In this document: positions 11,175 to 28,599 of the stretch, one piece after another | Layout of the letters: each line of letters opens with the position of its first letter | How positions within the stretch are numbered: the first letter of the stretch is position 1 | NCBI RefSeq assembly: GCF_056746865.1 | Contig: NZ_CM163382.1 | Strand: one strand, 5' to 3' | DNA length: 64,000 nucleotides | Position numbers and translations under genes: made by a program | The notes under the pieces: model-generated | The model's database searches: none | The model's input: the letters and a program-made list of their open reading frames with translations, nothing else | What the model was told of the DNA's origin: nothing

Positions 11175-12143
11175 TCAAACCATCCATTTCTTCATTTTTT
11201 TTTTGAACCAAGAACCAGTAGGAATAGGTTCAACTGCTGATAACTCAGTCAACTTCACACTTAATCGTTCCATTTCAGCTTTTACTTGTCCTGAGAATGC
11301 GGCAGCGAGAAGGCACTCTTCATCATTACGATCATGTGCCTTGAAATAATCTTTATGCTTCACTCGATTAGCAGTAGCAGCACTACCACGCAGATGCTTG
11401 CCCAACAAGAATTCCTCAAGTGATTTAACTGCATAGTGATTTACCCTGACACCGCTCCAAATCACTTCAGCACTAACTCCTTTACCATGCCTCGGGTGCA
11501 GAATCAAATCACGACCTAACACATCAATATATCGACCATAACGCAAATCAGCATAATGCGGATTATGAAAGCGGTTAACTCGTTCTGGTTTGACCACACT
11601 TTTGAAGTTATGATGAACGTTAAAGGGTTGCGGGGCACGATAGGTAAAACGTTCAATAACCAACCCCTCTTCAGCAAACAGTTCACCACTAGAACCAAAA
11701 TTTGCCCAATTCAATGCAATAGCGCTGACACTCTCATCCTGAAACTTTTCAGAAAAAAAATCTGACAATTTGGTATCCGATTCAAGTGGCAATAAAAATT
11801 CATCAGCATCTATAAATGCAAGCAGGTCTATGTCTCTGGGACAGCTACGTAAAATATGTTCATATGCAGGTAATTGTGGCTTTTGATTCACCAAAATCGG
11901 TTGATCGAACATCTTCACAATACCTAAGCGAGCGAGGGACAATAGCAACTCTCGACTACCATCACGACTACCATTATCTGCAATAATAAACCCATCAACA
12001 CCTAATACTCGATGGTAAGCAATCCATTCAAGTAAACTTGAATACTCATCCTTGATAATAGCGGCTATATAGAGTTTCAAATTATCATCCAGCAAAAATG
12101 TATCAATGCCGATACTATCGGCATTGATACTCAATTTTATCAT
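11175..12143 (-). CDS. glycosyltransferase (GT2/GT92-like fold)
   Basis: 322 aa with LLEWIAYHRVLGVDGFIIADNGSRDGS. Paralog of the N-terminal domain of the 409-aa protein at 15216..16445. Confidence 0.55.
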   Translation of the reverse strand: MIKLSINADSIGIDTFLLDDNLKLYIAAIIKDEYSSLLEWIAYHRVLGVDGFIIADNGSRDGSRELLLSLARLGIVKMFDQPILVNQKPQLPAYEHILRSCPRDIDLLAFIDADEFLLPLESDTKLSDFFSEKFQDESVSAIALNWANFGSSGELFAEEGLVIERFTYRAPQPFNVHHNFKSVVKPERVNRFHNPHYADLRYGRYIDVLGRDLILHPRHGKGVSAEVIWSGVRVNHYAVKSLEEFLLGKHLRGSAATANRVKHKDYFKAHDRNDEECLLAAAFSGQVKAEMERLSVKLTELSAVEPIPTGSWFKKKMKKWMV

Positions 12144-12586
12144 CAGGCAGGAGAAAAAAATAACCCGTCCAACCAGGTGATCACCCCATCTGATTCCAGC
12201 CCAATAATTATTTTGGTAGAAAATGGAATACTGATATCAAATCCGCACCGAAGTTTTTGATGTTTTTCAGGTGGTTGTTTTAGTATAGCTGAAATAACAT
12301 CAGGCCGCTTTGTATTGAAAGGAAAACTGTATGTCATATGATCAATTTTAACAGCAACATGGGAATCTGCTTCCCCTTCAGCCACTAACCACCCCCGAAG
12401 TACAATCCGGCCATTGACGATCTTTAGTGGTTGTTGTTCTGATGGCGAATCAATATTCCAATATAATTGACCGCCAGACTTGACGAGTGGCGATTTTGTG
12501 AGGGTATAAATAACAGCCATACGATTCCTTCTATTTGAAATATTGCTCAAATAACTCAGACTATCTCCAGATTGCCTTTCAAGCAA
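12143..12586 (-). CDS. hypothetical protein; stand-alone ~90-aa module shared with two neighbouring proteins
   Basis: 147-aa ORF. Shares IVLRGW...RPDV...CGF motifs with the C-terminus of the 409-aa protein and the N-terminus of the 426-aa protein. Confidence 0.4.
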   Translation of the reverse strand: MLERQSGDSLSYLSNISNRRNRMAVIYTLTKSPLVKSGGQLYWNIDSPSEQQPLKIVNGRIVLRGWLVAEGEADSHVAVKIDHMTYSFPFNTKRPDVISAILKQPPEKHQKLRCGFDISIPFSTKIIIGLESDGVITWLDGLFFSPA

Positions 12587-12713
12587 GATAATCCCAAGTT
12601 TTTATGGGATATACATAACTATGGATACAACCAAGAAAAATGATTTTGCCTCAATGGAAGAAATTACGGTAATAGAATTCCATTATCCCATTTACAATCC
12701 ACTGCTACGTTAT

Positions 12714-13880
12714 TTAATCAGCCCCAAAAAGATCTCTGGTATAAACCTTTTCGGCTACATCGACTAATTCAGCAGCCATGCGATTACAGAGAATAACATC
12801 GCTCAGCGCTTTAAACTCAGCCAGTTCCCGAATCACTCGGGAATTGAAGAATGTATCTTCATGAATAGTCGGTTCAAAGACCACTACCTCAATACCCTTG
12901 GCCTTAATACGCTTCATGACTCCCTGTATCGCAGAAGAGCGGAAATTATCTGAGCCAGCCTTCATCACCAAACGATGGATGCCCACCACCTTAGGTTTAC
13001 GACGCAATACGCTATCAGCAATAAAGTCTTTGCGAGTGCAATTAGCATCGACAATGGCGCGGATCAGATTGTTGGGTACCTTGTTGTAGTTGGCCAGCAA
13101 CTGCTTGGTGTCTTTGGGCAGGCAATAGCCACCATAACCAAATGAGGGGTTGTTATAATGGCTACCGATACGCGGATCCAAGCCAACCCCTTCGATAATC
13201 TGACGACTGTCCAAGTCATGCGACTGAGCATAGGTGTCCAACTCATTGAAATAGGCCACCCGCATTGCCAGATACGTATTAGCAAACAACTTGATGGCCT
13301 CCGCCTCGGTGCTGCCCGTTAGCAGTACCGGAATGTTCTGCTTGATCGCCCCTTCTTGCAACAATTCAGCAAATCGTTTGGCCCGCTCACTACGCTCACC
13401 CACCACAATACGGGAAGGGTATAGGTTGTCATACAGCGCCTTGCCCTCACGCAAGAACTCGGGAGAGAAGATCAGATTATCGGTGCCTAACTCACTACGC
13501 AGCCGCTCGGTAAAGCCTACCGGAATGGTAGACTTGATCACCATCACTGCATTAGGGTTGATACTGATCACATCGCGAATCACCCACTCGACTGAGTCGG
13601 TGTTAAAGTAGTTGGTCTCGGGATCATAATCGGTGGGGGTAGCAATAATCACAAATTCGGCCGCCTCATACGCCTCGAATTTATTCAGCGTCGCCTTAAG
13701 GTTCAGATGATTGTTGGCCAGATAGGCCTCCAGCTCTTTATCTGCAATGGGGGATTGACGGCGATTAATCAGTTCGACTTTCTCTGGTAATATATCCAGT
13801 GCAATTACCTGATGATGTTGAGCTAATAGCACTGCAATAGAAAGACCTACATAACCAGTTCCAGCTATAGCTATTTTCAT
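12714..13880 (-). CDS. ugd: UDP-glucose 6-dehydrogenase
   Basis: [24 protein letters not shown]-binding N-terminus and overall UDP-glucose/GDP-mannose dehydrogenase family features. Start placed at the internal Met (ATG at 13878-13880); the track start is at 13910. Confidence 0.85.
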
Positions 13881-13928
13881 GTTATAAAATACCTGCTCAA
13901 TTAAGTTCACATATATTTTTTACAAGTA

Positions 13929-15209
13929 TTATGAGGGTGCAGATTCAGTATTATATAATTTACTCATTTTTTCATGATAAAATAAAAGCGAAGGGCAAGA
14001 ATTATACTCAAAATTATTAATCTTTTTCTTGTATATTTTTCTAACAATTTCAGAAGTAAAACAGAAATTGTTTTTAGGTGGCTTCACAATAAATCTAGAA
14101 GCGACCTGAATAATTATTTTTGATGGCTTTTCATGAGCCACCACATCAAGATCCACACTCGCACCAGAAAATACATGGATTACTCTTTTATATTTATTTA
14201 CAAAATATGGAAGCATATTTATAGAATAAGAATCACCAAAAAAAACCACGACACTATCATCTATTTTGCGATTATTTTCAAATACTCTCACCCATCCTCT
14301 ATTATTAACCCCGTTATCATAAACAATATAATTATCAATACCAGAGAAATCAGCCTTCAATATATCCTGCGAAATCGGAGGGGTTGTCTTAATTCCTAAA
14401 TCGCCATAACTCCTTTTAATGTAAAAAGGGAAAATAGAATTATCGAGGACCGTGTTGTTTTTATTTAAGATATTATCTATATATTTAGCCACCTGCAATG
14501 CAGCAAAATCAGACCAGTGCGTATCAACTTTAGAATATGAGCTATCACCGATATCTCTTAATATATCTAAAGGATAAACTATATCAGTACAAATGGAGAG
14601 TAACTGTTCAACTGGTGTCTCTGGCGATTTTTTAAACGGATAGTATGATGACAATACATTCTCTTTGGCTGGAGCCAAACAAAAAACATATTCAATCCGT
14701 TGATCATTCATATATTTCCGAATAAAATCTAGATAGTTCTTCCAAACAGAAATATCATCATTTGTAATTTTTTTAATTCCAATAAACTGCTCTTTACTCT
14801 GATTGGTATCATGATCCAAGAATAAATACCCATTGTGTCCAAAAAGCACTTTTTGAGGAGGAGTTATATCTACTCTCGCTATTACATAATCAACATTATT
14901 AATAGTTGTTCCAATACTAAACGACTCCAAACTAGTAATAGCATAACTAAAACCACACATAGTATCACTAACATTTCCATTGAAATGTCTTACTACGTCT
15001 AATCTGGGTGTATTATAGTCAAGAATTAATTTCTCTCCATTCTTAACTATATATATATTATTCTGACAACCTTTATAGAGTAGCCATCCCGATAAATGAA
15101 TCGCAGAGCAATTTGACTTAAAATAACTACATGTCCGAGGACTATCAATTGAAAACTTGAGCCCGGTAATATCTGGTCTTATAACAGATAGTTTGATATC
15201 ATATTTCAT
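13929..15209 (-). CDS. putative SGNH/AlgJ-like polysaccharide-modifying acyltransferase with N-terminal shared module
   Basis: 426 aa. N-terminus carries the HLSGW...RLDV...CGF module. The body has DTHW and FFGDSYS motifs reminiscent of SGNH/AlgJ-type O-acyltransferases. Assignment by motif only. Confidence 0.45.
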   Translation of the reverse strand: MKYDIKLSVIRPDITGLKFSIDSPRTCSYFKSNCSAIHLSGWLLYKGCQNNIYIVKNGEKLILDYNTPRLDVVRHFNGNVSDTMCGFSYAITSLESFSIGTTINNVDYVIARVDITPPQKVLFGHNGYLFLDHDTNQSKEQFIGIKKITNDDISVWKNYLDFIRKYMNDQRIEYVFCLAPAKENVLSSYYPFKKSPETPVEQLLSICTDIVYPLDILRDIGDSSYSKVDTHWSDFAALQVAKYIDNILNKNNTVLDNSIFPFYIKRSYGDLGIKTTPPISQDILKADFSGIDNYIVYDNGVNNRGWVRVFENNRKIDDSVVVFFGDSYSINMLPYFVNKYKRVIHVFSGASVDLDVVAHEKPSKIIIQVASRFIVKPPKNNFCFTSEIVRKIYKKKINNFEYNSCPSLLFYHEKMSKLYNTESAPS

Positions 15210-15215
15210 TAAATT

Positions 15216-16445
15216 TTAAACCAATTTTGAAACTAATTCTTCATTGAGTGGAAATTCTAAACTAACTAATCCAGCCTGATTTAAAGTATATATCTGAACG
15301 CTTGAGATAAGTTGTGTAGGAAGCGACAACGAACATATAAACCCGCACCCAATTCCATTACCAATCCCAGCTTTTTCTACATCAGGCCGATCATAAAATG
15401 ATAGTGAGTCTGGGCGTATTAAAAAAGAGTTATTTATAACCATTACAATACTACTACATGGTTTTTTATCATTATCTACTGCCCAACCTTTTAGAACTAT
15501 AGCACGTCCATCTTTTTTAATTGTATCAATAAATCCAACCCCCATACTTTTAGTAGTCTTATAAAGTGGTTCACTTCTGCTTTCTATGAGCGGCTGATAT
15601 CCACAATCAAGCAATTTCTCATTAATGGTTGCGATTTGACATTTTACTTTTCTCAGAAACCATAATGGAATATGTTGCTCAATATTATTCAAATCATGAT
15701 TTTTAAAAAATTGCAGATTTCTACCGAGACTATTTTTTAGTGTTGTAGCTCTACCTCGAGCGACCTTTTTATTCAAGAATTCAGCCTTTGACTTAATTAC
15801 ATAATGATTAAGTCTGATAACTGACCAGTCAATCACCTCACTTATTCCATCATAACTATGATGTTCTTCTCCACTTGGCATAACAAATTTCTTATCTGAA
15901 TTAATAATAAAAGCATGGGGTGTTGGTCCTGCTTTGATAACATCAGAAACACGAACTATTGACTTATAATGCCTATTAACAGGATGCAGATCAGCAGCTC
16001 TCTTAACGAATCGTTCTATAACAAGACCGTCATCAGGTAAAATTGAATGAGATGAGCCATATACAGCCCAGTTGAGTGATATTGCACCAATCGCCTGATC
16101 ATTTAATAGCGGCATCAGTTTGTTTAAACCATCTTCATAGTCATTTGGTGAAATAAATTCATCTGCATCAATAAATGCAACCCATCTATCTTTATCAAGC
16201 ATTGACAATATTTTATTGTACGCCCCCAATTGTGGGGGAATACCATCTTGTGTCGGATAGTCAATCCTTTTGATAATATTCGCTTTATCTAGAAAATATA
16301 AAAGCTCACTACTTCCATCACTACTAATATTGTCGGCAATATATATATCATTAATGCCAAGAGCCATATGGTAAGCAATCCACTCAACAATGAATGGGTA
16401 TTCATTTTTTAAAATTGCACCTATTGAAAGCATCGCTGTTATCAC
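15216..16445 (-). CDS. glycosyltransferase (GT2/GT92-like) fused to C-terminal shared module
   Basis: 409 aa with VEWIAYHMALGINDIYIADNISSDGS at the N-terminus and IVLKGW...RPDV...CGF at the C-terminus. Confidence 0.55.
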   Translation of the reverse strand: MITAMLSIGAILKNEYPFIVEWIAYHMALGINDIYIADNISSDGSSELLYFLDKANIIKRIDYPTQDGIPPQLGAYNKILSMLDKDRWVAFIDADEFISPNDYEDGLNKLMPLLNDQAIGAISLNWAVYGSSHSILPDDGLVIERFVKRAADLHPVNRHYKSIVRVSDVIKAGPTPHAFIINSDKKFVMPSGEEHHSYDGISEVIDWSVIRLNHYVIKSKAEFLNKKVARGRATTLKNSLGRNLQFFKNHDLNNIEQHIPLWFLRKVKCQIATINEKLLDCGYQPLIESRSEPLYKTTKSMGVGFIDTIKKDGRAIVLKGWAVDNDKKPCSSIVMVINNSFLIRPDSLSFYDRPDVEKAGIGNGIGCGFICSLSLPTQLISSVQIYTLNQAGLVSLEFPLNEELVSKLV

Positions 16446-16456
16446 TCTACTTAAAA

Positions 16457-18874
16457 TTAAATGGAGAAGTCTTCTCTATCTTTAGATAGGTTTGGACTGT
16501 AGAAGGGATCGAGTTCGAGATGTTTACCCCATTTGCTTTTCATAAAGTTCACTTCCCTGGCAAATCTGGCTATTTTCTCCGGGGAATCTTCGGCACCTCG
16601 ACTAATTGATTCATAGTGGTAAAGCTCGGCATAAGGCGTCCAGAGATTACGGTACCCCGCTTCGCGTACTTTCAGACAGAAGTCCACATCATTAAAAGCA
16701 ACATGCAAATTCTCTTCATCCAACCCGGCAACTTCCTCATAAATATTTTTGCGAATAAGCAGGCAAGCAGCCGTGACGGCCGAGAGAGTTTGTGTCAACA
16801 ACAAACGGCTGAAATAACCCGGATGATGGCGAGGGTACTGTTTATGAGAGTGTCCCGCTACACCACCAATACCGAGAATAACTCCGCCATGTTGTAAAGT
16901 ATCATTACTGTAATAGAGCTTGGCCCCGACACAACCAATCTCTGGTCGCATGCAGTGACTCACCATCTCGGTCAGCCAATCCGGGTTGATTACCTCGACA
17001 TCATTATTGACCAAGCCGATAATGGCCCCCTTGGCGTGACGAACGCCAAAGTTGTTGATGGCCGAGTAGTTAAAGGGGTGGTCATAGCGCAATACTCTGA
17101 CCCGGCTGTCTTCCTGCTGGATCTGGGCAAAGAAATCGAGAGTCTCCTGCTCCACGCTGCCATTATCGAGAATCAGGATCTCGAAATGGGTATAGGTACT
17201 GCGATCGATGATGCTACGCACCGCAGTTTCGGTTAGAGCACGACGATCCCGAGTAGGAATAAGCAAACTAACCAGTGGGGCTGGTTCTGAAATAGGGTAA
17301 CGTACCCGATAGGTGTTGGGAACCAACCCCGCCTCAACCGTAACCTCAGGTTGCTGCTTAGAAAAATAGTCGCGTAGCGCTTTGATGCCAGCCTCCGTGG
17401 TGTAGCTCTTCTCGCCAGAAGCCAAAGCTGTAGAGCCCTCAATGGTACGCCAGTGGTAAAGCACACGGGGAATGTGAACTATCTGCTCTGCAGCTACATG
17501 AGGCAGACAACGCAGCAGCAGATCCTGATCCTGACTTCCTTCTACTCCCAAACGGAATCCCCCAATCTGTTGCAGCAGAGAGCGACGATAGACCCCGAGA
17601 TGCGAGACATAGTTTTGCGAAAAGAATAAATCTGGATTCCAATCGCTCTTGAAATGAGGATCAAAACGCTCACCGCGGGCATTAATTTTATCTTCGTCAC
17701 TGTAAAGGATCTGGGTATGAGGCTGCTCACAAATAGCCTGAGCCATAAATAGCATAGCATGCTCTGGCAACACATCATCATGATCCAACAGAGCTACGAA
17801 ATCCCCTTTTGCAATTTCGAGAGCACTGTTGGAAGCAGCCGAAATATGACCATTGTGCTTTCGGTAGACAACTTTGATTCGGCTATCCTTGGCCTCGTAT
17901 TCGCGCAGTACGCGTTGCACATGTTCTTTTGGCGAACGATCATCGGCAATACAGAGTTCCCAATGGGGATAGCTTTGAGCCAGGACAGAATCCAGACAGG
18001 CACGCAAGTAGATCTCCGCTGGATTATAAACAGGAATCACAATAGATATAACTGGAGGGTGAGTCATACTGGCAAGCATCAGACTCACCTCTTTGTTGCC
18101 AGGCAACGAAGGTAATTCCACCGTTTCTATCCATTCCTCATAACCGACAGAAAACGGGGTAACGCTGAACGTTTCGTTATAGAATGCCTGCAGGCGCTCT
18201 ATTGACATATCGCCATTGTCCATCAATATGGATTTTTTGATTTTTTCTAGCGGCATGTCACGATAGCTTTGGTGTTCTTTTTGAATGCGAGCCAATAGTG
18301 CAGACTCAACTACTTTCACATCAACAGCTGCTATTTCAAACTGATTAATTGCAAATGTTGCTGCCTGTTCTAATGGATCAAATCGTAATGCAACAAGAGG
18401 CGATTCCAGATAGAACAAACGACTGACGCTGACCGCTCGTTTATATGGCAACGTTACTGTTTCAAACTCATTGAACCCTTTACCTGTATCCAAATATAAC
18501 TTAGCTAATCCTTGCTTTGGTTGGCAATTAATAGAGATATTAAATTGATACCATCCCTTGCTAATATTTGAGAGCTGCTCCAAATCAATAATGAAAAATG
18601 GATCATTTCCCTCTGCAACCCAACTTTGTGAATTATCTATATCTATCGAGAGCTGATTTGTTGCCAGATAGGGCAGCACAACTGTATTTTGCATTTTACT
18701 CACTGCAGGAGAAACGTCCCATGCTTCGCATGGTTTCCTACCGAGTAACATCCCATAACGCTTAAAATGTTCTCTTGCTGACAACCCGGTCTGTTTCACA
18801 TCCAAATAGTTATGCAGATACCAATGTTCATCAAAGTGAGCTAGCAACTCGTCTTGGTGATTTTTAACCATCAC
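16457..18874 (-). CDS. dual-domain GT2 glycosyltransferase, candidate capsule polymerase
   Basis: 805 aa with two GT2 cores (ISIVIPVYNP...LLDHDDVL and VSLLIPTRDR...ILDNGSVEQE...NYSAINN...LVNNDVEV). N-terminal HWYLHNYLDVKQTGLSAREHFKRYG motif. Strong RBS (AGGGAG) before the start. Confidence 0.7.
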   Translation of the reverse strand: MMVKNHQDELLAHFDEHWYLHNYLDVKQTGLSAREHFKRYGMLLGRKPCEAWDVSPAVSKMQNTVVLPYLATNQLSIDIDNSQSWVAEGNDPFFIIDLEQLSNISKGWYQFNISINCQPKQGLAKLYLDTGKGFNEFETVTLPYKRAVSVSRLFYLESPLVALRFDPLEQAATFAINQFEIAAVDVKVVESALLARIQKEHQSYRDMPLEKIKKSILMDNGDMSIERLQAFYNETFSVTPFSVGYEEWIETVELPSLPGNKEVSLMLASMTHPPVISIVIPVYNPAEIYLRACLDSVLAQSYPHWELCIADDRSPKEHVQRVLREYEAKDSRIKVVYRKHNGHISAASNSALEIAKGDFVALLDHDDVLPEHAMLFMAQAICEQPHTQILYSDEDKINARGERFDPHFKSDWNPDLFFSQNYVSHLGVYRRSLLQQIGGFRLGVEGSQDQDLLLRCLPHVAAEQIVHIPRVLYHWRTIEGSTALASGEKSYTTEAGIKALRDYFSKQQPEVTVEAGLVPNTYRVRYPISEPAPLVSLLIPTRDRRALTETAVRSIIDRSTYTHFEILILDNGSVEQETLDFFAQIQQEDSRVRVLRYDHPFNYSAINNFGVRHAKGAIIGLVNNDVEVINPDWLTEMVSHCMRPEIGCVGAKLYYSNDTLQHGGVILGIGGVAGHSHKQYPRHHPGYFSRLLLTQTLSAVTAACLLIRKNIYEEVAGLDEENLHVAFNDVDFCLKVREAGYRNLWTPYAELYHYESISRGAEDSPEKIARFAREVNFMKSKWGKHLELDPFYSPNLSKDREDFSI

Positions 18875-18876
18875 TT

Positions 18877-21606
18877 TTATTCTCCCTTATTGACAGGCAG
18901 GCAACTGCGCTGCTCAAACTTCCCATACATAATGTAATGAAGCAGCGGATTAATGCCTCCTTGGGCCACATCCGGATAGGCTTGCAAATACCAGCGAGTA
19001 TCAAACTGCTCACTAGGGCTATAACCTTTATCCGCCCCCACGCTAATAAAATGCTCAAGAGCTGAGAGCCCAGTGTCTGCAACCTCTGGGTAGCGATGTT
19101 GATACCAGAGTTCATCAAACAATCCTGAAGCGGCAATACGCTCCGCGGCACTCTCTGTAGCTGTTGTTCTGGATGGAGTCTCCTTAAATGTTCTGCCAAG
19201 AGCACGAACTGGGGCTGTAATCTTCCAAGAGACGGTTCTCTTCAAATTCTGAGCGCGTTCTTTTGCTCTATTCAATTGCCGCTCTTTTTGTTTTAACTCA
19301 CAGCTAAGCTGCTCCATATGCCGCGTCATGACTGCCAACTCCTGGAAACGCTCTGCAATATTAGCTTCCAACCTTCCGTTGAGTGTGGTTAGTTCTCTTA
19401 CCTGGTCTTGCAGTACAGACTGCTGGCTCTGCAGCAAGGTTTGTTCCCGGATTAAGGCCTCCTTCTCTTCTTTCCAGGCTTGCTGCTGAGCTCTATATGT
19501 TTCATTGGTCTGTTGTTGTTCACTTGCTGCGCTAAGGAGTGCCTGATCACGTTCTTCCAGCCAACGGGTTAAGGTTGCAATCTCGCTGTACCGCTCATTG
19601 AGCACCGATTCCAACTCATCAAGTTGATGTTGCTTTTCTTTTGCTGCTGAGAGCAATGCAGACTGGGCCTGCTGAAGCGACTCTTGCTCAGCCCTTAACT
19701 GCTGCTCTACGCCAGACAACTTGGTGGTAATCAATTGTTTTTCAATCTCTAGTTCAGTGATAATCTGCTTGTGCTCTTCTAATAGACGTGTTAGAGCTAC
19801 CGTTTCACTAAAACGCTCGGCTAATGCCAAGTCCCGTTCGCTAATCTGTTGCTGATGTGTGGTCTGTTCAACTGCCAGTTGTTGTTGTAATGCTGATAGC
19901 GCCTCTGTGAGTTGCTTATACTCTGCTTGTTGAGCAGCCATTACGTCGCTTTGTGACGCAATATTAGACTCGCGCACTGCTATTAGTTGAGTCAGTTCAT
20001 CACATTGTTTAGAAGCCGCAGCCAAAGCAAGAGTTTGCTCATCTATGCTTTGCTGCAATGTTTGTTGCACAAGTTGCCCTTCTTCCAACTGTTGCTGTAG
20101 ATTTGCACTTACCTTTTTCAGTGCATCATATTCCAAGCCTAACGTATCGTGCTGTGCTTCCAGTAATCCATAAGCATGCTGCAACTGGTTTTTAGTTTGC
20201 TGCTCACCGTCAAGCTGCTGCTGCAATGCATTAGCCTGCTGTTGCAACAAGTTCACCATATTGTCTCGCTCGGCCAGTGTACGAACCTGTGTATCCTGGA
20301 CATGTAGCGCTTGTTCCAACTGAAGCTGTAATTCGGTAATTTGCCGCGAATGTTCGCTCAATGCTCTGTTACTCTTGCTGAGCGCGAGAGTAAGGTGAGA
20401 TGCACGCTGTGTTTCTTCACTCAATTGTAACGTCAGGGTATTGACCTGTTGCTCCAGTTGATGGCGAGCTTGCTCCTGGCTCGTGATGCGACTCTGTTGC
20501 TGCTCTAGTTGATGCAGAGCTGTATGCAACTCATCGTTGGCTTGTATTCGCTCCTGCGACCATACACTCAAGTTTGTTTGGGCCTCATTGAGCTGTTCTT
20601 GCAATAATGCCACCTCAGATGTCAGCGAATTGATATGTTGCTGGGCAAAAGATAGCTCATCAGATTGCACTTGAGCATGTGCAAGCTGCTTTTCCATTTC
20701 TAATATGCTGTTATGTTGTGCAGTAATGCGCTCGGCAAGACGCCCTCTTTCCAATGCCTGCTGTTCTACCAATAGCTGCCGTTCAGCCTGAATGTCATCT
20801 TGTTGTGTAGACAACTGACGTTTTAACAGGGAATTCTCCCAACTCTCGCTACAAGATTTCCCCAAACGACAAAAGATGTCTTGGACTTGTTTGGTTACAC
20901 GAGCATTTTCTGAGATTTTATACAAATTATTAAGTTCTGGAGATTGTTCACACCCCACACCAACTATCCCTAGTCCATGCCCATGAGCGAACTCAAAGTG
21001 TGGATATTGTCGTTTTAATTCATCCAAAAGCTGAAATACGCCAAAACCACGTTCCCTAACATTGGTATCATGCATAATGACCACAGCCCTTTCAGAAAGC
21101 TTTGGCAACCAGCTTTCAAAATCATGGCGTACCGCTTCGAACGTATGCAAACCATCAATATGAAGCAGATCAATGCTACCTTGTGAAAAATGCTCTAACG
21201 CTTGGTCAAATGTACTGCGAATGAGAGTAGAAAAACCTGAATAGTGCTGTTGATTATATTCTGATACTTGCCTGTAAACTTCTTCGCCATACAGCCCCGC
21301 ATGTTCATCTCCCCCCCAGGTATCAACGGCAAAGCAGCATGTTTCTAAATCTAGTTTAGAGACTGCCTGGCAGAATGAGAAATAAGAACTTCCATAATGA
21401 GTTCCCAGCTCAACAATATTTCTTGGCCGCAGTGTGTCAACTAACCAGAAAGCAAAAGGAATATGTTCTAGCCAAGCAGATTGTGCAAGATATGTAGGAC
21501 GCCAAAAAAGAGATGATTTGAAAATGAAATTCAATTCCCCGCCAATATCAGTGATGGGATATAACTCACGATTTTCTACTAACTGACTAATTTTTTGACT
21601 ATCCAT
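18877..21606 (-). CDS. class I SAM-dependent methyltransferase-like domain fused to a ~550-aa coiled coil and C-terminal WY repeats
   Basis: 909 aa. N-terminus has NIVELGTHYGSS...LLHIDGLHTFEAV...VIMHDT (Methyltransf_24-like). Residues ~255-810 are Q/E/L-rich heptad-like sequence with three ER[FY]xE[IL]A..TR..EE repeats. C-terminus has two W-Y-x3-Y-P-[ED]-V-A...G...H[FY] repeats. Confidence 0.65.
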   Translation of the reverse strand: MDSQKISQLVENRELYPITDIGGELNFIFKSSLFWRPTYLAQSAWLEHIPFAFWLVDTLRPRNIVELGTHYGSSYFSFCQAVSKLDLETCCFAVDTWGGDEHAGLYGEEVYRQVSEYNQQHYSGFSTLIRSTFDQALEHFSQGSIDLLHIDGLHTFEAVRHDFESWLPKLSERAVVIMHDTNVRERGFGVFQLLDELKRQYPHFEFAHGHGLGIVGVGCEQSPELNNLYKISENARVTKQVQDIFCRLGKSCSESWENSLLKRQLSTQQDDIQAERQLLVEQQALERGRLAERITAQHNSILEMEKQLAHAQVQSDELSFAQQHINSLTSEVALLQEQLNEAQTNLSVWSQERIQANDELHTALHQLEQQQSRITSQEQARHQLEQQVNTLTLQLSEETQRASHLTLALSKSNRALSEHSRQITELQLQLEQALHVQDTQVRTLAERDNMVNLLQQQANALQQQLDGEQQTKNQLQHAYGLLEAQHDTLGLEYDALKKVSANLQQQLEEGQLVQQTLQQSIDEQTLALAAASKQCDELTQLIAVRESNIASQSDVMAAQQAEYKQLTEALSALQQQLAVEQTTHQQQISERDLALAERFSETVALTRLLEEHKQIITELEIEKQLITTKLSGVEQQLRAEQESLQQAQSALLSAAKEKQHQLDELESVLNERYSEIATLTRWLEERDQALLSAASEQQQTNETYRAQQQAWKEEKEALIREQTLLQSQQSVLQDQVRELTTLNGRLEANIAERFQELAVMTRHMEQLSCELKQKERQLNRAKERAQNLKRTVSWKITAPVRALGRTFKETPSRTTATESAAERIAASGLFDELWYQHRYPEVADTGLSALEHFISVGADKGYSPSEQFDTRWYLQAYPDVAQGGINPLLHYIMYGKFEQRSCLPVNKGE

Positions 21607-24491: not shown

Positions 24492-26237
24492 TCATTTAAT
24501 AGCAACGTTAGCAGCTACAGCGATTTGATAAATAATTTGTGTGATATCTTTAAATGATTGCATGGTTTTGCTATCAACCTGAGGTAGAACCAATATCTGA
24601 TCCCCCGGTTGTACTTTACCTTGCCCTTTAAATTCTACAAGACCATTTGCATGTACAATAGCAATTCGCTTGTCGTTAGCTCGCTCAGTAAAACCTCCGG
24701 CCCATGCAACATAATCATCCAAATTAGCATCGGCATTATATACTACTGCTTGTGGCATCAACACTTCACCACCCACTTGAATAAGATCAGTCTTATTTGG
24801 AATAACTATTTGATCGCCTTGTTCTAATTGGATATTGGCAATAACACCTTTATCTGCAACTACTACTTTACCAAGCGGTTGAACTTTACGAGCCTTTTCA
24901 ACAAACTGCATCACTAACTCTGCTTCTTTAGCACGTATATTCGCCTCACCATCAGATCGCGCGGGTGTGGTAAATACACTACGTTCCAAGCGGTTTAGAG
25001 ATTCATCCAGCATCTCTTTTTGTCTTGCAGCCACACTCTTTCGTATCAGATAAATTGATTGATAATCCGCAAGCTCTGGGTCAATAGGGATATAGTTCAA
25101 TAAATCATGCAATTTAGTTTGCTTACGAACCGTGAAATATGACGGTCCCATATAACTGCCTGATACTTGTATATCATATACTTGTGCATGCATGTCATCA
25201 TTAAAAAGTACTTTGTCACCGTCTTTAAGTTGAAGACGTGTAAAATCTTTATACGGCAAGTAGACGGAAAACGGGCCGCTTTCCCTGTCGCCAATCACAC
25301 CGACATGACTGACTTTTGCGAGAGGAAGTGCATAATTCACCAATTCAGAGCCTAATGCATTGCGCTGGGTAAGCTCAAATCGGAATGGGTTTCGAACCTT
25401 TCCCGCAACATTGATCATTGGACCTTGTTGCTCAACTAAAATCACATCTTGATCTTTTAATGCCAGCTTCGGGAGTTTCCCATACCGTATGAAATCATAA
25501 AGATCAATTTGCTGTATTACTCTATTTTGTCGTAACACCTTAATTTTTCGATAACTTCCACGGTCAGAATCTATTCCACCGGCACGTTTTAAAAAATACA
25601 ATATACTATCAGAAGATTGTCCTGCATACTGCCCAGGACGAATTACAGGCCCCGTAACGAATACACTTACAGGGGTTGCAGTCAAAAGATTTACGTAAGT
25701 ATTTACATTATTGGTAAATACATCACCGATCTTACTTGCCACCAACTGATTAACTTGGCTTGCAGGAACATTTTTTACATTTATTGGACCTACATCAGGT
25801 ATGAAAATATTTCCTTGATTATCTACCGTAACCACATTAGAGAAATTGACCGCTCCCCAAATCCAGATATTTAACTTATCCCCAGGAGCAATCAAATAAT
25901 TATCGCTTAAGCCGTCACTCCTTTCTGTTTCATAGCCTCCGGCAAATAAATTAGCACCATACGGAGGAGGTAAGCCTGCTTCAGATTGCGGCAGTAATTT
26001 TCGTACATCTGACTCTCCTGGAAGCAACATCCCATTACGATTCTGTTGTGTGAAGCTTCCTGTTGTGGAGGTTGTATTAGGCTGTCCAGTGATGTCTGCT
26101 AGCATTTTCCGAGACTCTCCTGTCGAGGCAGCAAGATCATAATCTAAATGTGAACCATTAGATTGATTTTGCTCTATTGCGGCGAATGCTGATGCAGAAA
26201 TAAGAAAGAGAAGAGTGCTAAGTTGCGAAATTTTCAT
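24492..26237 (-). CDS. kpsD: KpsD-like periplasmic/outer-membrane capsule export protein
   Basis: 581 aa with signal peptide (MKISQLSTLLFLISASAFA). Central region resembles KpsD (GDKLNIWIWGA...GNIFIPDVGPINV...VFVTGPVIRPGQY...RGSY). Confidence 0.75.
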   Translation of the reverse strand: MKISQLSTLLFLISASAFAAIEQNQSNGSHLDYDLAASTGESRKMLADITGQPNTTSTTGSFTQQNRNGMLLPGESDVRKLLPQSEAGLPPPYGANLFAGGYETERSDGLSDNYLIAPGDKLNIWIWGAVNFSNVVTVDNQGNIFIPDVGPINVKNVPASQVNQLVASKIGDVFTNNVNTYVNLLTATPVSVFVTGPVIRPGQYAGQSSDSILYFLKRAGGIDSDRGSYRKIKVLRQNRVIQQIDLYDFIRYGKLPKLALKDQDVILVEQQGPMINVAGKVRNPFRFELTQRNALGSELVNYALPLAKVSHVGVIGDRESGPFSVYLPYKDFTRLQLKDGDKVLFNDDMHAQVYDIQVSGSYMGPSYFTVRKQTKLHDLLNYIPIDPELADYQSIYLIRKSVAARQKEMLDESLNRLERSVFTTPARSDGEANIRAKEAELVMQFVEKARKVQPLGKVVVADKGVIANIQLEQGDQIVIPNKTDLIQVGGEVLMPQAVVYNADANLDDYVAWAGGFTERANDKRIAIVHANGLVEFKGQGKVQPGDQILVLPQVDSKTMQSFKDITQIIYQIAVAANVAIK

Positions 26238-26263: not shown

Positions 26264-26635
26264 TTATTCTTCAATAAGCAAAGTGCTAACTGATGTTTGT
26301 TCCAACTGAGGTACTTGATACCACTTGTTATTCTCTTTACATACAACACTTCGCTTTGAATAATTTTTATTCATCGCATAACTTAACTTTATGCATTGAG
26401 AACCTAAAGCCGATATATACCTTTCCTCAATAGTATAAATTACGCCATTTTTGTTGAATGTCGTGCCTTGATCTTGGTTATTTAATGGTGCCTGCAAATC
26501 TTCAGGAATAAGAGAATAAGAAGAATTAATCGCTGTTACCAATGGACGAGAGGCTTCAACTTGTTTTGGATCATGTGCGCAGGCCGTTATAAAAAAGATT
26601 AGTGAAAATAATAAAATACGATGTGCAAGGTGCAT
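26264..26635 (-). CDS. putative small lipoprotein
   Basis: 123 aa, signal peptide plus lipobox (FFITAC). Sits between the JUMPstart element and kpsD. No assignable family. Confidence 0.4.
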   Translation of the reverse strand: MHLAHRILLFSLIFFITACAHDPKQVEASRPLVTAINSSYSLIPEDLQAPLNNQDQGTTFNKNGVIYTIEERYISALGSQCIKLSYAMNKNYSKRSVVCKENNKWYQVPQLEQTSVSTLLIEE

Positions 26636-27564
26636 TTTAAAACGTTATCCAAAAGTTGATAGTATGTAAAACAATTACCTTCTATTATTGATACTCTGAC
26701 AGATATCAATAATAGCCCATAAATATAAGATATTTAAAATTATAACCACACAAATTAATCATAGATGTTGCTAGTATAAGATTGACTTTAGTCAACTGGT
26801 GTTTACATCATCTGTTTATAACTAATTACGAATATATCCTTTATCTTTTGGATATGTACTACATATGCAACACACATCCCTAAAAATATTATTTTTATGG
26901 CCCCGTATATTGCTATCTTTTTTTTATAAAATTTAATAATAACAACCATATGGAAGAGAAAATCCCTCTTATACATAAAGAGGGATCAATTAAATAAATT
27001 TGTTTTGTAATGACTCAGTAAGGCATAGACGTTTTCATAAATTCTTAAATTACTATCCCCAAAAATCTAAGTCCTGAAAAACTTTAACACTCTAATATTT
27101 TCATGAGCCGTTCAGCACACCCTCAACTTCGATAAAAAATGCTAACTAGTAAATAATTGTCGCAATAATAATAGTCGTACTTTATCAATAACAGATAAAC
27201 AAAAATAATAAAAAAGAGGGGAGATACACTTGCGATAGAATGGCGGCTTCTTGCCCCCCTTTGCCCGGTCCTGACTAGCATGGCTGGAGTCAGTGTCAGG
27301 CCACGACCATGCTCATCATGGAAGCAGCTTTTGTAGTACACTTCGCAGCTTATTTTCCTGGAACGAAATGTCTGGCATCGTGGTGCATAACATAACCCCC
27401 AATGCCCAGCAGATGCACAGAAGGTTCTAGAATCGCCCACTGATATCCCATACAAAATTTACCAAAACGTGTTCGTATTTCTCGTATAAATAATGTCTCT
27501 ATGGTGACGTTCTAGACTTCAAACCCACTTTTTGAATTTGATGATGTGCTCCTAATCTCTTCAG

Positions 27565-27604
27565 GAATGCTACCGCCCCTGGCTTTACAGCTACCAATAC
27601 ACTG
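27565..27604 (-). promoter_or_regulatory. JUMPstart element containing an ops (GGCGGTAG) site, RfaH-dependent antitermination signal for the kps transcript
   Basis: Minus-strand sequence cagtgtattggtagctgtaaagccaggggcggtagcattc closely matches the 39-bp JUMPstart consensus (CAGTG..TGGTAGCTGT.AAGCCAGGGGCGGTAGC). Correct orientation, ~1.3 kb upstream of kpsD. Confidence 0.75.
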
Positions 27605-28062
27605 GAGGTATACTTATCTGCAACTGGATGAACTAGATATACTTGAGCAAACATTTCATAAGCTCGACGAACAGTTTTCGTAGAAATTATTTTCCTTATT
27701 TAAAATTCACTTATTGATTATCTCTAGGAATTTTACTAATTTCCAAGTCACATAAAATACAGATCACACAAGAATTATCCTATATGCTTTAACCTATCAA
27801 TTATTACTCAATGATTCATTACAACTATTAATAATCATAATGCGTCAAAACACTTAAGCAACTTTACAGTCTGAGAAAGGTGTCGATTCACAAGGACTGC
27901 ATAGTGAAAAACGAATTCCTACAGTATTATCGAACATTCCGTGGTGGTCTGGAGGGAGATAACCCTTGCTACATCGGAACTCAGCCCGGTGAGCGGGTTT
28001 GACAGTTCCGCACTCACCTTTGGGCTAAGGTTATCAGGTGGGGTTTAAGGGGATGGCAATAC

Positions 28063-28599
28063 TTACCCCCGTCCAAACTCCAGCCGCTGCACGTTCACCA
28101 TTCCAGCCTTTTCATCTGCACTGACATCAATTTGTGTCACCCGCAGCGCATACTTTTCATCCAGCGCGTTTAACCAGTTCAGCAGATCATTAAATACCAC
28201 AGGATCTATCCAGACCTGGATATTCTCCCCGCGCTCGGCTATCCGCTTAATGACCACTGAATGCGCCGAAGCACTGTCACTGATGACCCGCGATACCTGC
28301 GCAGGCGTTGTTGTGGCAGATTTTCGCGCTGCAATAATATCCGGCGCGGCGTTCTTCAGTCGGGTGTTCATCGCCACCAGCTGCTGCAATATTGTCTCCT
28401 GTTGCTCAATCCGTTCGCTCAACGGCTGCCAGATGAGGACGTAATATCCGACGCTAAACAGGAACACCACCGCTGCCAGTAACATGCCCTTTTCACGCGG
28501 AGAACGCCCCGCCAGGTGTTGTGCCAGCCAGTGTTCGCCACGGCTTAACTGGCGTTCACGCCATTGCTGAAAATAGTGAATAAATTTATCGCGTAACAT
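28063..28599 (-). CDS. gspM: type II secretion system protein M
   Basis: 178 aa, single N-terminal TM. Last gene of a colinear gspC-M run. Confidence 0.8.
   Translation of the reverse strand: MLRDKFIHYFQQWRERQLSRGEHWLAQHLAGRSPREKGMLLAAVVFLFSVGYYVLIWQPLSERIEQQETILQQLVAMNTRLKNAAPDIIAARKSATTTPAQVSRVISDSASAHSVVIKRIAERGENIQVWIDPVVFNDLLNWLNALDEKYALRVTQIDVSADEKAGMVNVQRLEFGRG

Follow-up and report, generated by a model that had tools for sequence, protein, structure and literature searches.

This locus raises the question of what the two GC-richer patches on either side of a JUMPstart element are, and how they came to lie between the T2SS gene yghD (gspM) and the capsule gene kpsD. The original prediction had taken them for possible eroded genes or insertion-sequence remnants, perhaps left by the event that inserted the capsule island next to gspM. 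The window, by which we mean the whole 64-kb stretch of DNA analysed, is E. coli chromosome, and the capsule cluster that it carries at the yghD/gspM end of kps is of group 3 (3A-type). The gene yghD/gspM occupies 28063-28599 on the minus strand, with the remaining T2SS-beta gsp operon to its right, and the block of kpsD, kpsM, kpsT and kpsE in group 3 order, also on the minus strand, starts at 26237 and extends to the left, preceded by a 123-aa ORF. The gsp and kps genes are co-directional, as read from the ORF list and the PGAP annotation of a relative, and the yghD-kpsD intergenic region measures 1,825 nt.

Measured in 100-nt windows, GC content was 0.48-0.57 at 27200-27449 (patch 1) and 0.49-0.55 at 27900-28099 (the patch 2 area), against 0.24-0.35 at 26600-27199 and 0.25-0.27 at 27650-27849, which bears out the description of two GC-richer patches (0.48-0.57) in an AT-rich leader (0.24-0.35). 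The JUMPstart (Rfam RF01707) was recovered between both patches, as described, at 27566-27604 on the minus strand over the full model length, with 54.4 bits against a gathering score of 35 (E 4.6e-11). Weak Rfam matches to STnc230 and SNORA84 scored well under the respective gathering thresholds and were put down to chance.

Capsule-negative, group 2 and group 3 relatives of the locus

The comparison with capsule-negative E. coli had been proposed. In K-12 and similar capsule-negative strains, homology to the window begins only at 28059, four bases beyond the yghD stop, and both patches are absent; in K-12 a different 148-bp spacer followed by pheV is found in their place. When an island end or direct repeat was sought, neither the K-12 pheV nor its 148-bp spacer was present in the 64-kb window, and no tRNA gene lies within it.

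E. coli FDAARGOS_1250 matches the segment 26640-28100 at 99.9% identity, and at least 80% of the segment is covered in 88 of the 5426 complete E. coli genomes. Between kpsE and kpsC, the genes of FDAARGOS_1250 and the window differ in number and length (window 11175-21606 against L012 5248-11585 in FDAARGOS_1250), which implies that a serotype-specific region has probably been exchanged between conserved flanks.

In the group 2 strains K5 MZ1211, ECOD1, 30859_5#21 and Dog168, yghD is followed by ~1.06-1.16 kb of intergenic DNA and then by kpsM-kpsT (region 3). Over the 467 bp next to yghD, the K5 yghD-kpsM intergenic region shares 88.7% identity with the window at 27634-28100. The stretch 27357-27632 is collinear with, and 83% identical to, the K5 JUMPstart and the first 193 nt of kpsM (blastn). 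Between these two stretches, at the 27632-27634 junction, 531 bp of the K5 leader (L002 3470-4000) are absent. Set against group 2 (K5/K1) PR3, the window is 83-89% identical over the yghD spacer, promoter region, JUMPstart and kpsM 5' end, and its ops lies ~30 nt before the kpsM start position as in K5, but it lacks the 531 leader bp, its kpsM is truncated after ~60 codons and kpsT is absent. The claim that the patches are relics of the insertion of the capsule island beside gspM did not survive this comparison, as ~1500 group 2 genomes have a kps locus with this yghD-side flank. Rather, the relics would record that within an existing kps locus a group 3 cluster later took the place of a group 2 cluster.

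Decayed kpsM and transposase sequences in patch 1

The right half of patch 1 is a decayed 5' end of group 2 kpsM of ~60 codons (kpsM'), located at 27357-27538 on the minus strand and recognised by tblastn, blastn and the PGAP pseudogene of a relative. It lies just downstream of JUMPstart/ops, the position of kpsM in K5 strains, and residues 2-55 of K5 KpsM align to the minus strand of 27383-27535 with 70% identity (E 3e-22, tblastn). The reading frame contains an in-frame stop and a three-residue (9-nt) deletion, the start codon is no longer ATG in the alignment with K5, and the peptide TMPDISF follows in a shifted frame, reaching 27361. Nucleotide homology to kpsM ends at 27357, at about codon 60-63. 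KpsM homology downstream of ops is present as in K5, an intact frame of ~258 aa is not, and at the positions equivalent to 27361-27502 the PGAP annotation of the 99.9%-identical strain has a pseudogene for an ABC transporter permease, marked as frameshifted and incomplete. kpsM' is a gene relic and not a gene.

The left half of patch 1 is assigned to an internal fragment of an IS110-family transposase on the plus strand, at 27208-27318 and probably to ~27353, corresponding to residues 254-287 of ISEc20 and, with the extension, to ~254-310; the assignment to this family rests on 75-80% nucleotide identity over 72-111 nt. By blastn, 27190-27360 matched the interior of IS110-family transposase genes (ISEc20, ISSfl4 and Salmonella relatives) at 75-80% identity, with transposase-gene matches in >1200 E. 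coli records and 229 plasmid records at E ~1e-5 to 3e-10, and E values down to 5e-8 in 28 Gb. The matches are to the plus strand of the window and fall inside CDS in E. coli, Shigella, Salmonella and prophage records. In local alignment, 27213-27318 is 75% identical to nt 770-880 of the ISEc20 CDS with three small indels (E 4e-17), and the translation is 59% identical over 34 aa to ISEc20 residues 254-287, including PVLTSM(P/A)GV (tblastn). After a one-base frameshift, AFVVHFAAY aligns collinearly with ASVAHLAAY of residues 301-310, a match that 184 of 5000 shuffles scored equally well. This weakly suggests that the fragment reaches ~27353, in which case it would meet kpsM' within about three bases.

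The fragment carries indels and a frameshift, lies antisense to kps transcription, and is flanked by kpsM' on one side and by AT-rich group 3 DNA on the other. In a phage search of the whole segment, the matches listed were all in this fragment, nearly all of them to ISEc20 copies inside prophages. It gave no Pfam match at E <= 1, and its repaired translation, searched against the plasmid set by tblastn at E <= 1e-3, found only its own copy in a mis-filed chromosome. Other parts of such a transposase were found nowhere else in the 64-kb window, and no convincing IS ends or target duplications came out of a search for repeats near patch 1 and near the 531-bp difference. Homology to transposase CDS was found, and a complete IS110 transposase (~398 aa, with N-terminal catalytic domain) together with both element ends was not. 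The fragment resembles ISEc20 and ISSfl4 at 75-80% nucleotide and ~59% amino-acid identity around the PVLTSMPGVGV motif, but the window keeps just ~110-150 bp of the ~1.2-kb gene, interrupted by frameshifts and without the N-terminal catalytic domain and the element ends. It is not an element and cannot move.

Insertion sequences were also noted at other kps loci. In the group 3 strain 2020N21-110-24, an IS5 lies inside the IS110-family fragment (L007 5090-6300, at ~27278 of the window), between promoter/ops and kpsD, where it could have a polar effect on capsule expression. In the K5 strain MZ1211, a C-terminal remnant of an IS110-family transposase is located ~800 bp upstream of kpsF (L011 17000-17182), at the other end of the cluster, with 32% identity to ISEc20 at residues ~351-388 and without overlap with the window fragment. 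As it is apparently of a different subfamily and does not overlap, it neither supports nor refutes a link to the window fragment. IS110-family debris thus flanks kps loci at both ends, in different lineages.

The same stretch hosts the 110-aa Cys-rich ORF to which attention had been drawn (27123-27455, minus strand), which is present with a TTG start and 6 Cys and is the longest open frame in the segment, but is not a gene. Its length and its location on the transcribed strand downstream of the promoter would speak for a genuine small protein. However, it is read in a frame other than the two of kpsM', its central portion is the transposase fragment in antisense and its last part extends into AT-rich DNA, so that its sequence is wholly accounted for. 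It starts with TTG, has no Pfam match at E <= 1 and no PGAP annotation in the 99.9%-identical strain, and is interrupted by the IS5 in one capsule locus; the segment corresponding to it by position in the K96 strain M12 is dispensable for capsule (PMC13410964). We consider a genuine product very improbable and judged the ORF spurious; annotators should leave it uncalled.

The Pfam scan covered six translations, namely the transposase fragment, the 110-aa ORF, the repaired kpsM', two patch 2 frames and the 123-aa ORF. At E <= 1 it returned nothing for five of them and weak matches for the 123-aa ORF only, in agreement with the earlier description of a leader with no intact ORF of recognisable product. 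The 123-aa ORF (26264-26635, minus strand) lies directly upstream of kpsD, has a lipoprotein-like signal (…FFITAC) and is listed as hypothetical protein WP_071589989.1; its best Pfam result (DUF5061, 17-kDa common-antigen outer membrane protein, E 0.003) is weak and sub-threshold. In M12, a hypothetical ORF in the same position is dispensable for capsule (PMC13410964).

Between its T2SS gene and kpsD, the K96 group 3 strain M12 has a hypothetical ORF as well as a kpsM' pseudogene fragment (PMC13410964, mSphere 2026), and deletion of -1450 to -50 relative to kpsD, which takes out kpsM' and the small ORF, leaves capsule production intact (PMC13410964). The kpsM' fragment and its dispensability are therefore already published (PMC13410964). 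By position, the deletion starts ~23 nt after ops and would therefore remove the equivalent of all of patch 1. The patch 1 relics appear to be without function, being in decay and corresponding by position to a dispensable segment of M12.

The variable spacer next to yghD

Patch 2 (27870-28062) is a variable non-coding spacer between the yghD/gspM stop and the kps promoter, as delineated from its distribution and from allele alignment. Within the upstream region of group 2 region 3 (PR3) it occupies the end next to yghD, and it lies upstream of every mapped promoter element. Of 5426 E. coli genomes, 1545 have a single copy of the stretch 27870-28058, whereas K-12 has none, and the matches listed all adjoin yghD, nearly all of them without an annotated feature. 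Among plasmids there was no match except to one 4.9-Mb, chromosome-sized record filed as a plasmid, and no phage or IS similarity was found. For the suggestion of eroded gene or IS remnants, and in the mobile-element search proposed along with it, the two sides of the JUMPstart thus give different answers: patch 1 holds kpsM' and an IS110-family fragment that matches transposase genes, and patch 2, with no mobile-element, plasmid-gene or phage similarity, gives the result that the original prediction had named as speaking against it.

Patch 2 is also the least conserved part of the spacer among five kps-positive alleles. Allele L005 shares 38-58% identity with the window there and Dog168 52-92%, as compared with 78-92% in every allele for the promoter region at 27684-27833, and the alleles differ by indels of 17, 1, 2, 6 and 14 nt. 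A 40-aa ORF on the plus strand differs from the K5 allele at 10 of its 40 residues and is broken by indels in other alleles. Patch 2 reads as weakly constrained spacer DNA of the kps locus, and its GC content is simply near the E. coli average.

In Dog168 and CUWW10, yghD is annotated 42 nt (14 codons) longer (L009 2663-3241 and L010 2557-3135, about 28021-28062 of the window), and in the alignment the longer yghD of Dog168 goes with 14 nt inserted in the region of the stop codon. CUWW10 also has ISVsa5 in place of most of the spacer.

Folding and the five-allele alignment identified a stem-loop on the minus strand at 27983-28029, shortly after the yghD stop. The 137-nt stretch containing it has a minimum free energy of -37.9 kcal/mol (z = -2.1), and the 8-bp core of the stem, GGUGAGUG/CRCUCACC, is kept in all five aligned alleles; at one position, U pairs with G in the window and with A in L005. 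No U-tract or T-run follows the stem and the site went uncalled in the terminator scan, so that a canonical intrinsic terminator can be ruled out. The stem-loop may form the 3' end of the gsp transcript, ending or stabilising it.

These observations bear on whether patch 2 is functional non-coding DNA, either a terminator or insulator against gsp read-through into the kps promoter or a distal regulatory region. The preservation of the hairpin in all five alleles, very divergent ones included, with the exchange of U.G for U-A between the window and L005, speaks for such a role, as does the shared direction of gsp and kps transcription. However, the hairpin lacks a U-tract and went uncalled, its stability is only z = -2.1, the remainder of the patch is poorly conserved, and the K5 H-NS footprint at -135 to -21 (PMC8960920) would reach no further than roughly the inner edge of patch 2. 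We therefore regard a function as possible but doubtful.

A remnant eroded beyond recognition, for instance the tail of a longer gspM or of a following gene, is a less probable origin still. The GC content near the E. coli coding average, the longer yghD annotated into patch 2 in some strains and the 40-aa ORF, which is open in both the window and the K5 allele, can be cited for it, but the longer yghD goes with the 14-nt insertion at its stop-codon region, the ORF has diverged at a quarter of its residues (10 of 40) from K5, the indels are not multiples of three in the least conserved part of the spacer, neither open frame has a Pfam match, and plasmid (bar the 4.9-Mb record), phage and IS similarity is lacking; altogether we find such a remnant improbable. 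As patch 2 directly adjoins yghD and its copies are almost all unannotated, both patches might even be taken for ordinary core-chromosome intergenic DNA downstream of gspM. This is refuted by K-12, where the match starts only at 28059 and the other 148-bp spacer and pheV follow, and by the clear gene homologies in patch 1, which leave it practically no credence. We retain the reading of patch 2 as a variable spacer that belongs to the kps locus.

Control elements and proposed origin of the junction

The control elements of the locus all lie between the two patches. A consensus scan predicted a sigma-70 promoter on the minus strand (27717-27746) with the -35 box TTGGAA at 27746-27741 and the -10 box GATAAT at 27722-27717, and the RfaH loading site ops, GGCGGTAG, lies within the JUMPstart at 27577-27570 on the same strand. 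Primers listed in Table S4 of the M12 study match the window with 0-1 mismatch and map to 27683-27798 (PMC13410964). They place the putative OxyR site of the group 3 kps promoter, mutated in pRDP3, at 27781-27798 (minus strand), exactly flanked by the M12 mutagenesis primers, and the start of the inactive promoterless fragment pTS3 at 27683 (minus strand). As a scan with the OxyR consensus matched 9 of 16 positions at several places, the site was placed from these published primers instead.

In M12, the predicted -35 and -10 boxes lie 1,641 and 1,617 nt and ops 1,473 nt from the kpsD start, a putative OxyR site is located 5' of the -35 box, and the requirements for the promoter, RfaH and OxyR have been shown experimentally (PMC13410964). 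The spacing of -35, -10 and ops in the window agrees with M12 to within 1 nt, and the equivalence of the two loci is based on the primer matches and these matching distances. The upstream region of kpsD in M12 shares with the window the kpsM' fragment, the hypothetical ORF, the distant promoter, ops and the OxyR site; its intergenic region measures 1,956 nt against 1,825 nt in the window, so that M12 has ~131-133 nt extra between ops and kpsD. In the text searched, the M12 study makes no mention of the IS110 fragment found in the window (PMC13410964).

The promoter derives from that of group 2 region 3 (PR3), and its surroundings are 84-92% identical to the K5 PR3 region. Since the mapped control elements all lie between the patches, transcription would start at this retained promoter near 27710-27750, RfaH would be recruited by ops, and the polymerase would read through both relics and the AT-rich leader into kpsD. 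The segment's only terminator-like site (26961-26987, minus strand), a 10-bp stem followed by TTCTCTT, is located in the AT-rich leader on the downstream side of ops, before kpsD, and an RfaH-modified polymerase would need to traverse it.

The leader between promoter and ops has been shortened with respect to group 2. The long leader was found in all four group 2 alleles examined, divergent ones included, which makes a deletion in the group 3 lineage the parsimonious reading of the 531-bp difference. Of the three 20-nt TAATTTC-N5-GAAATTA repeats in the K5 leader, two fall in the missing sequence. In K5, the PR3 start site lies 741 nt upstream of kpsM (PMC8960920, summarising Stevens 1997 and Xue 2009) and H-NS footprints cover -135 to -21 and +141 to +219, the downstream site (+141 to +219) being essential for repression at 20 degrees C (PMC8960920). 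By coordinate mapping, the downstream site corresponds to ~L002 3896-3974, inside the missing 531 bp. Group 3 capsule expression is temperature-independent (PMC13410964), in contrast to that of group 2 capsules, and we tentatively suggest that loss of this H-NS site could explain such expression from a PR3-derived promoter, an idea that we rate as conceivable and not as probable. If true, it would be a simple explanation for temperature-independent group 3 capsules.

As an explanation of the whole junction, we consider it highly probable that a group 3 cluster replaced a group 2 cluster and kept the region 3 control region, with patch 1 as relics and patch 2 as spacer. Retained from group 2 would be the patch 2 spacer, the PR3-derived promoter with its OxyR site, the shortened leader, JUMPstart/ops and ~60 codons of kpsM. 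The breakpoint in kpsM would abut the internal scrap of an IS110-family transposase, and beyond this scrap lie the AT-rich group 3-specific DNA, the small ORF and kpsD-M-T-E. The homologies, boundaries and decay were established in this analysis, and the order of events is inferred from them; the sequence of IS insertion, deletion and group 3 arrival is beyond reconstruction from one junction. As the junction is 99.9% identical beside different serotype-specific genes, it is consistent with one old event followed by exchange of region 2.

A similar junction is said to have been described before. Russo et al. in 1998 reportedly found in E. coli CP9 (K54), at the boundary of its group III cluster, a truncated kpsM with 5' regulatory sequence and an adjacent IS110-like sequence, and reportedly read this junction as group 3 genes replacing group 2 genes. 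K54 CP9 reportedly has the same architecture as the window, i.e. a group 2-like kpsM fragment and regulatory region with IS110-related sequence close by, and an IS110-like sequence at the K54 junction would on this account have been in print since 1998. The IS110 likeness reported there is said to lie in the 39-bp inverted repeats of Streptomyces IS110, whereas the window holds internal transposase CDS (ISEc20 residues ~254-310) and not an element end.

The significance of these relics beyond annotation is small. They would serve as a marker of a single ancestral replacement of group 2 by group 3, as the junction is >99% identical beside different sets of serotype-specific genes. The analysis also indicates that the promoter and the RfaH/ops system used by chromosomal group 3 capsule loci are recycled from region 3 of a group 2 cluster.
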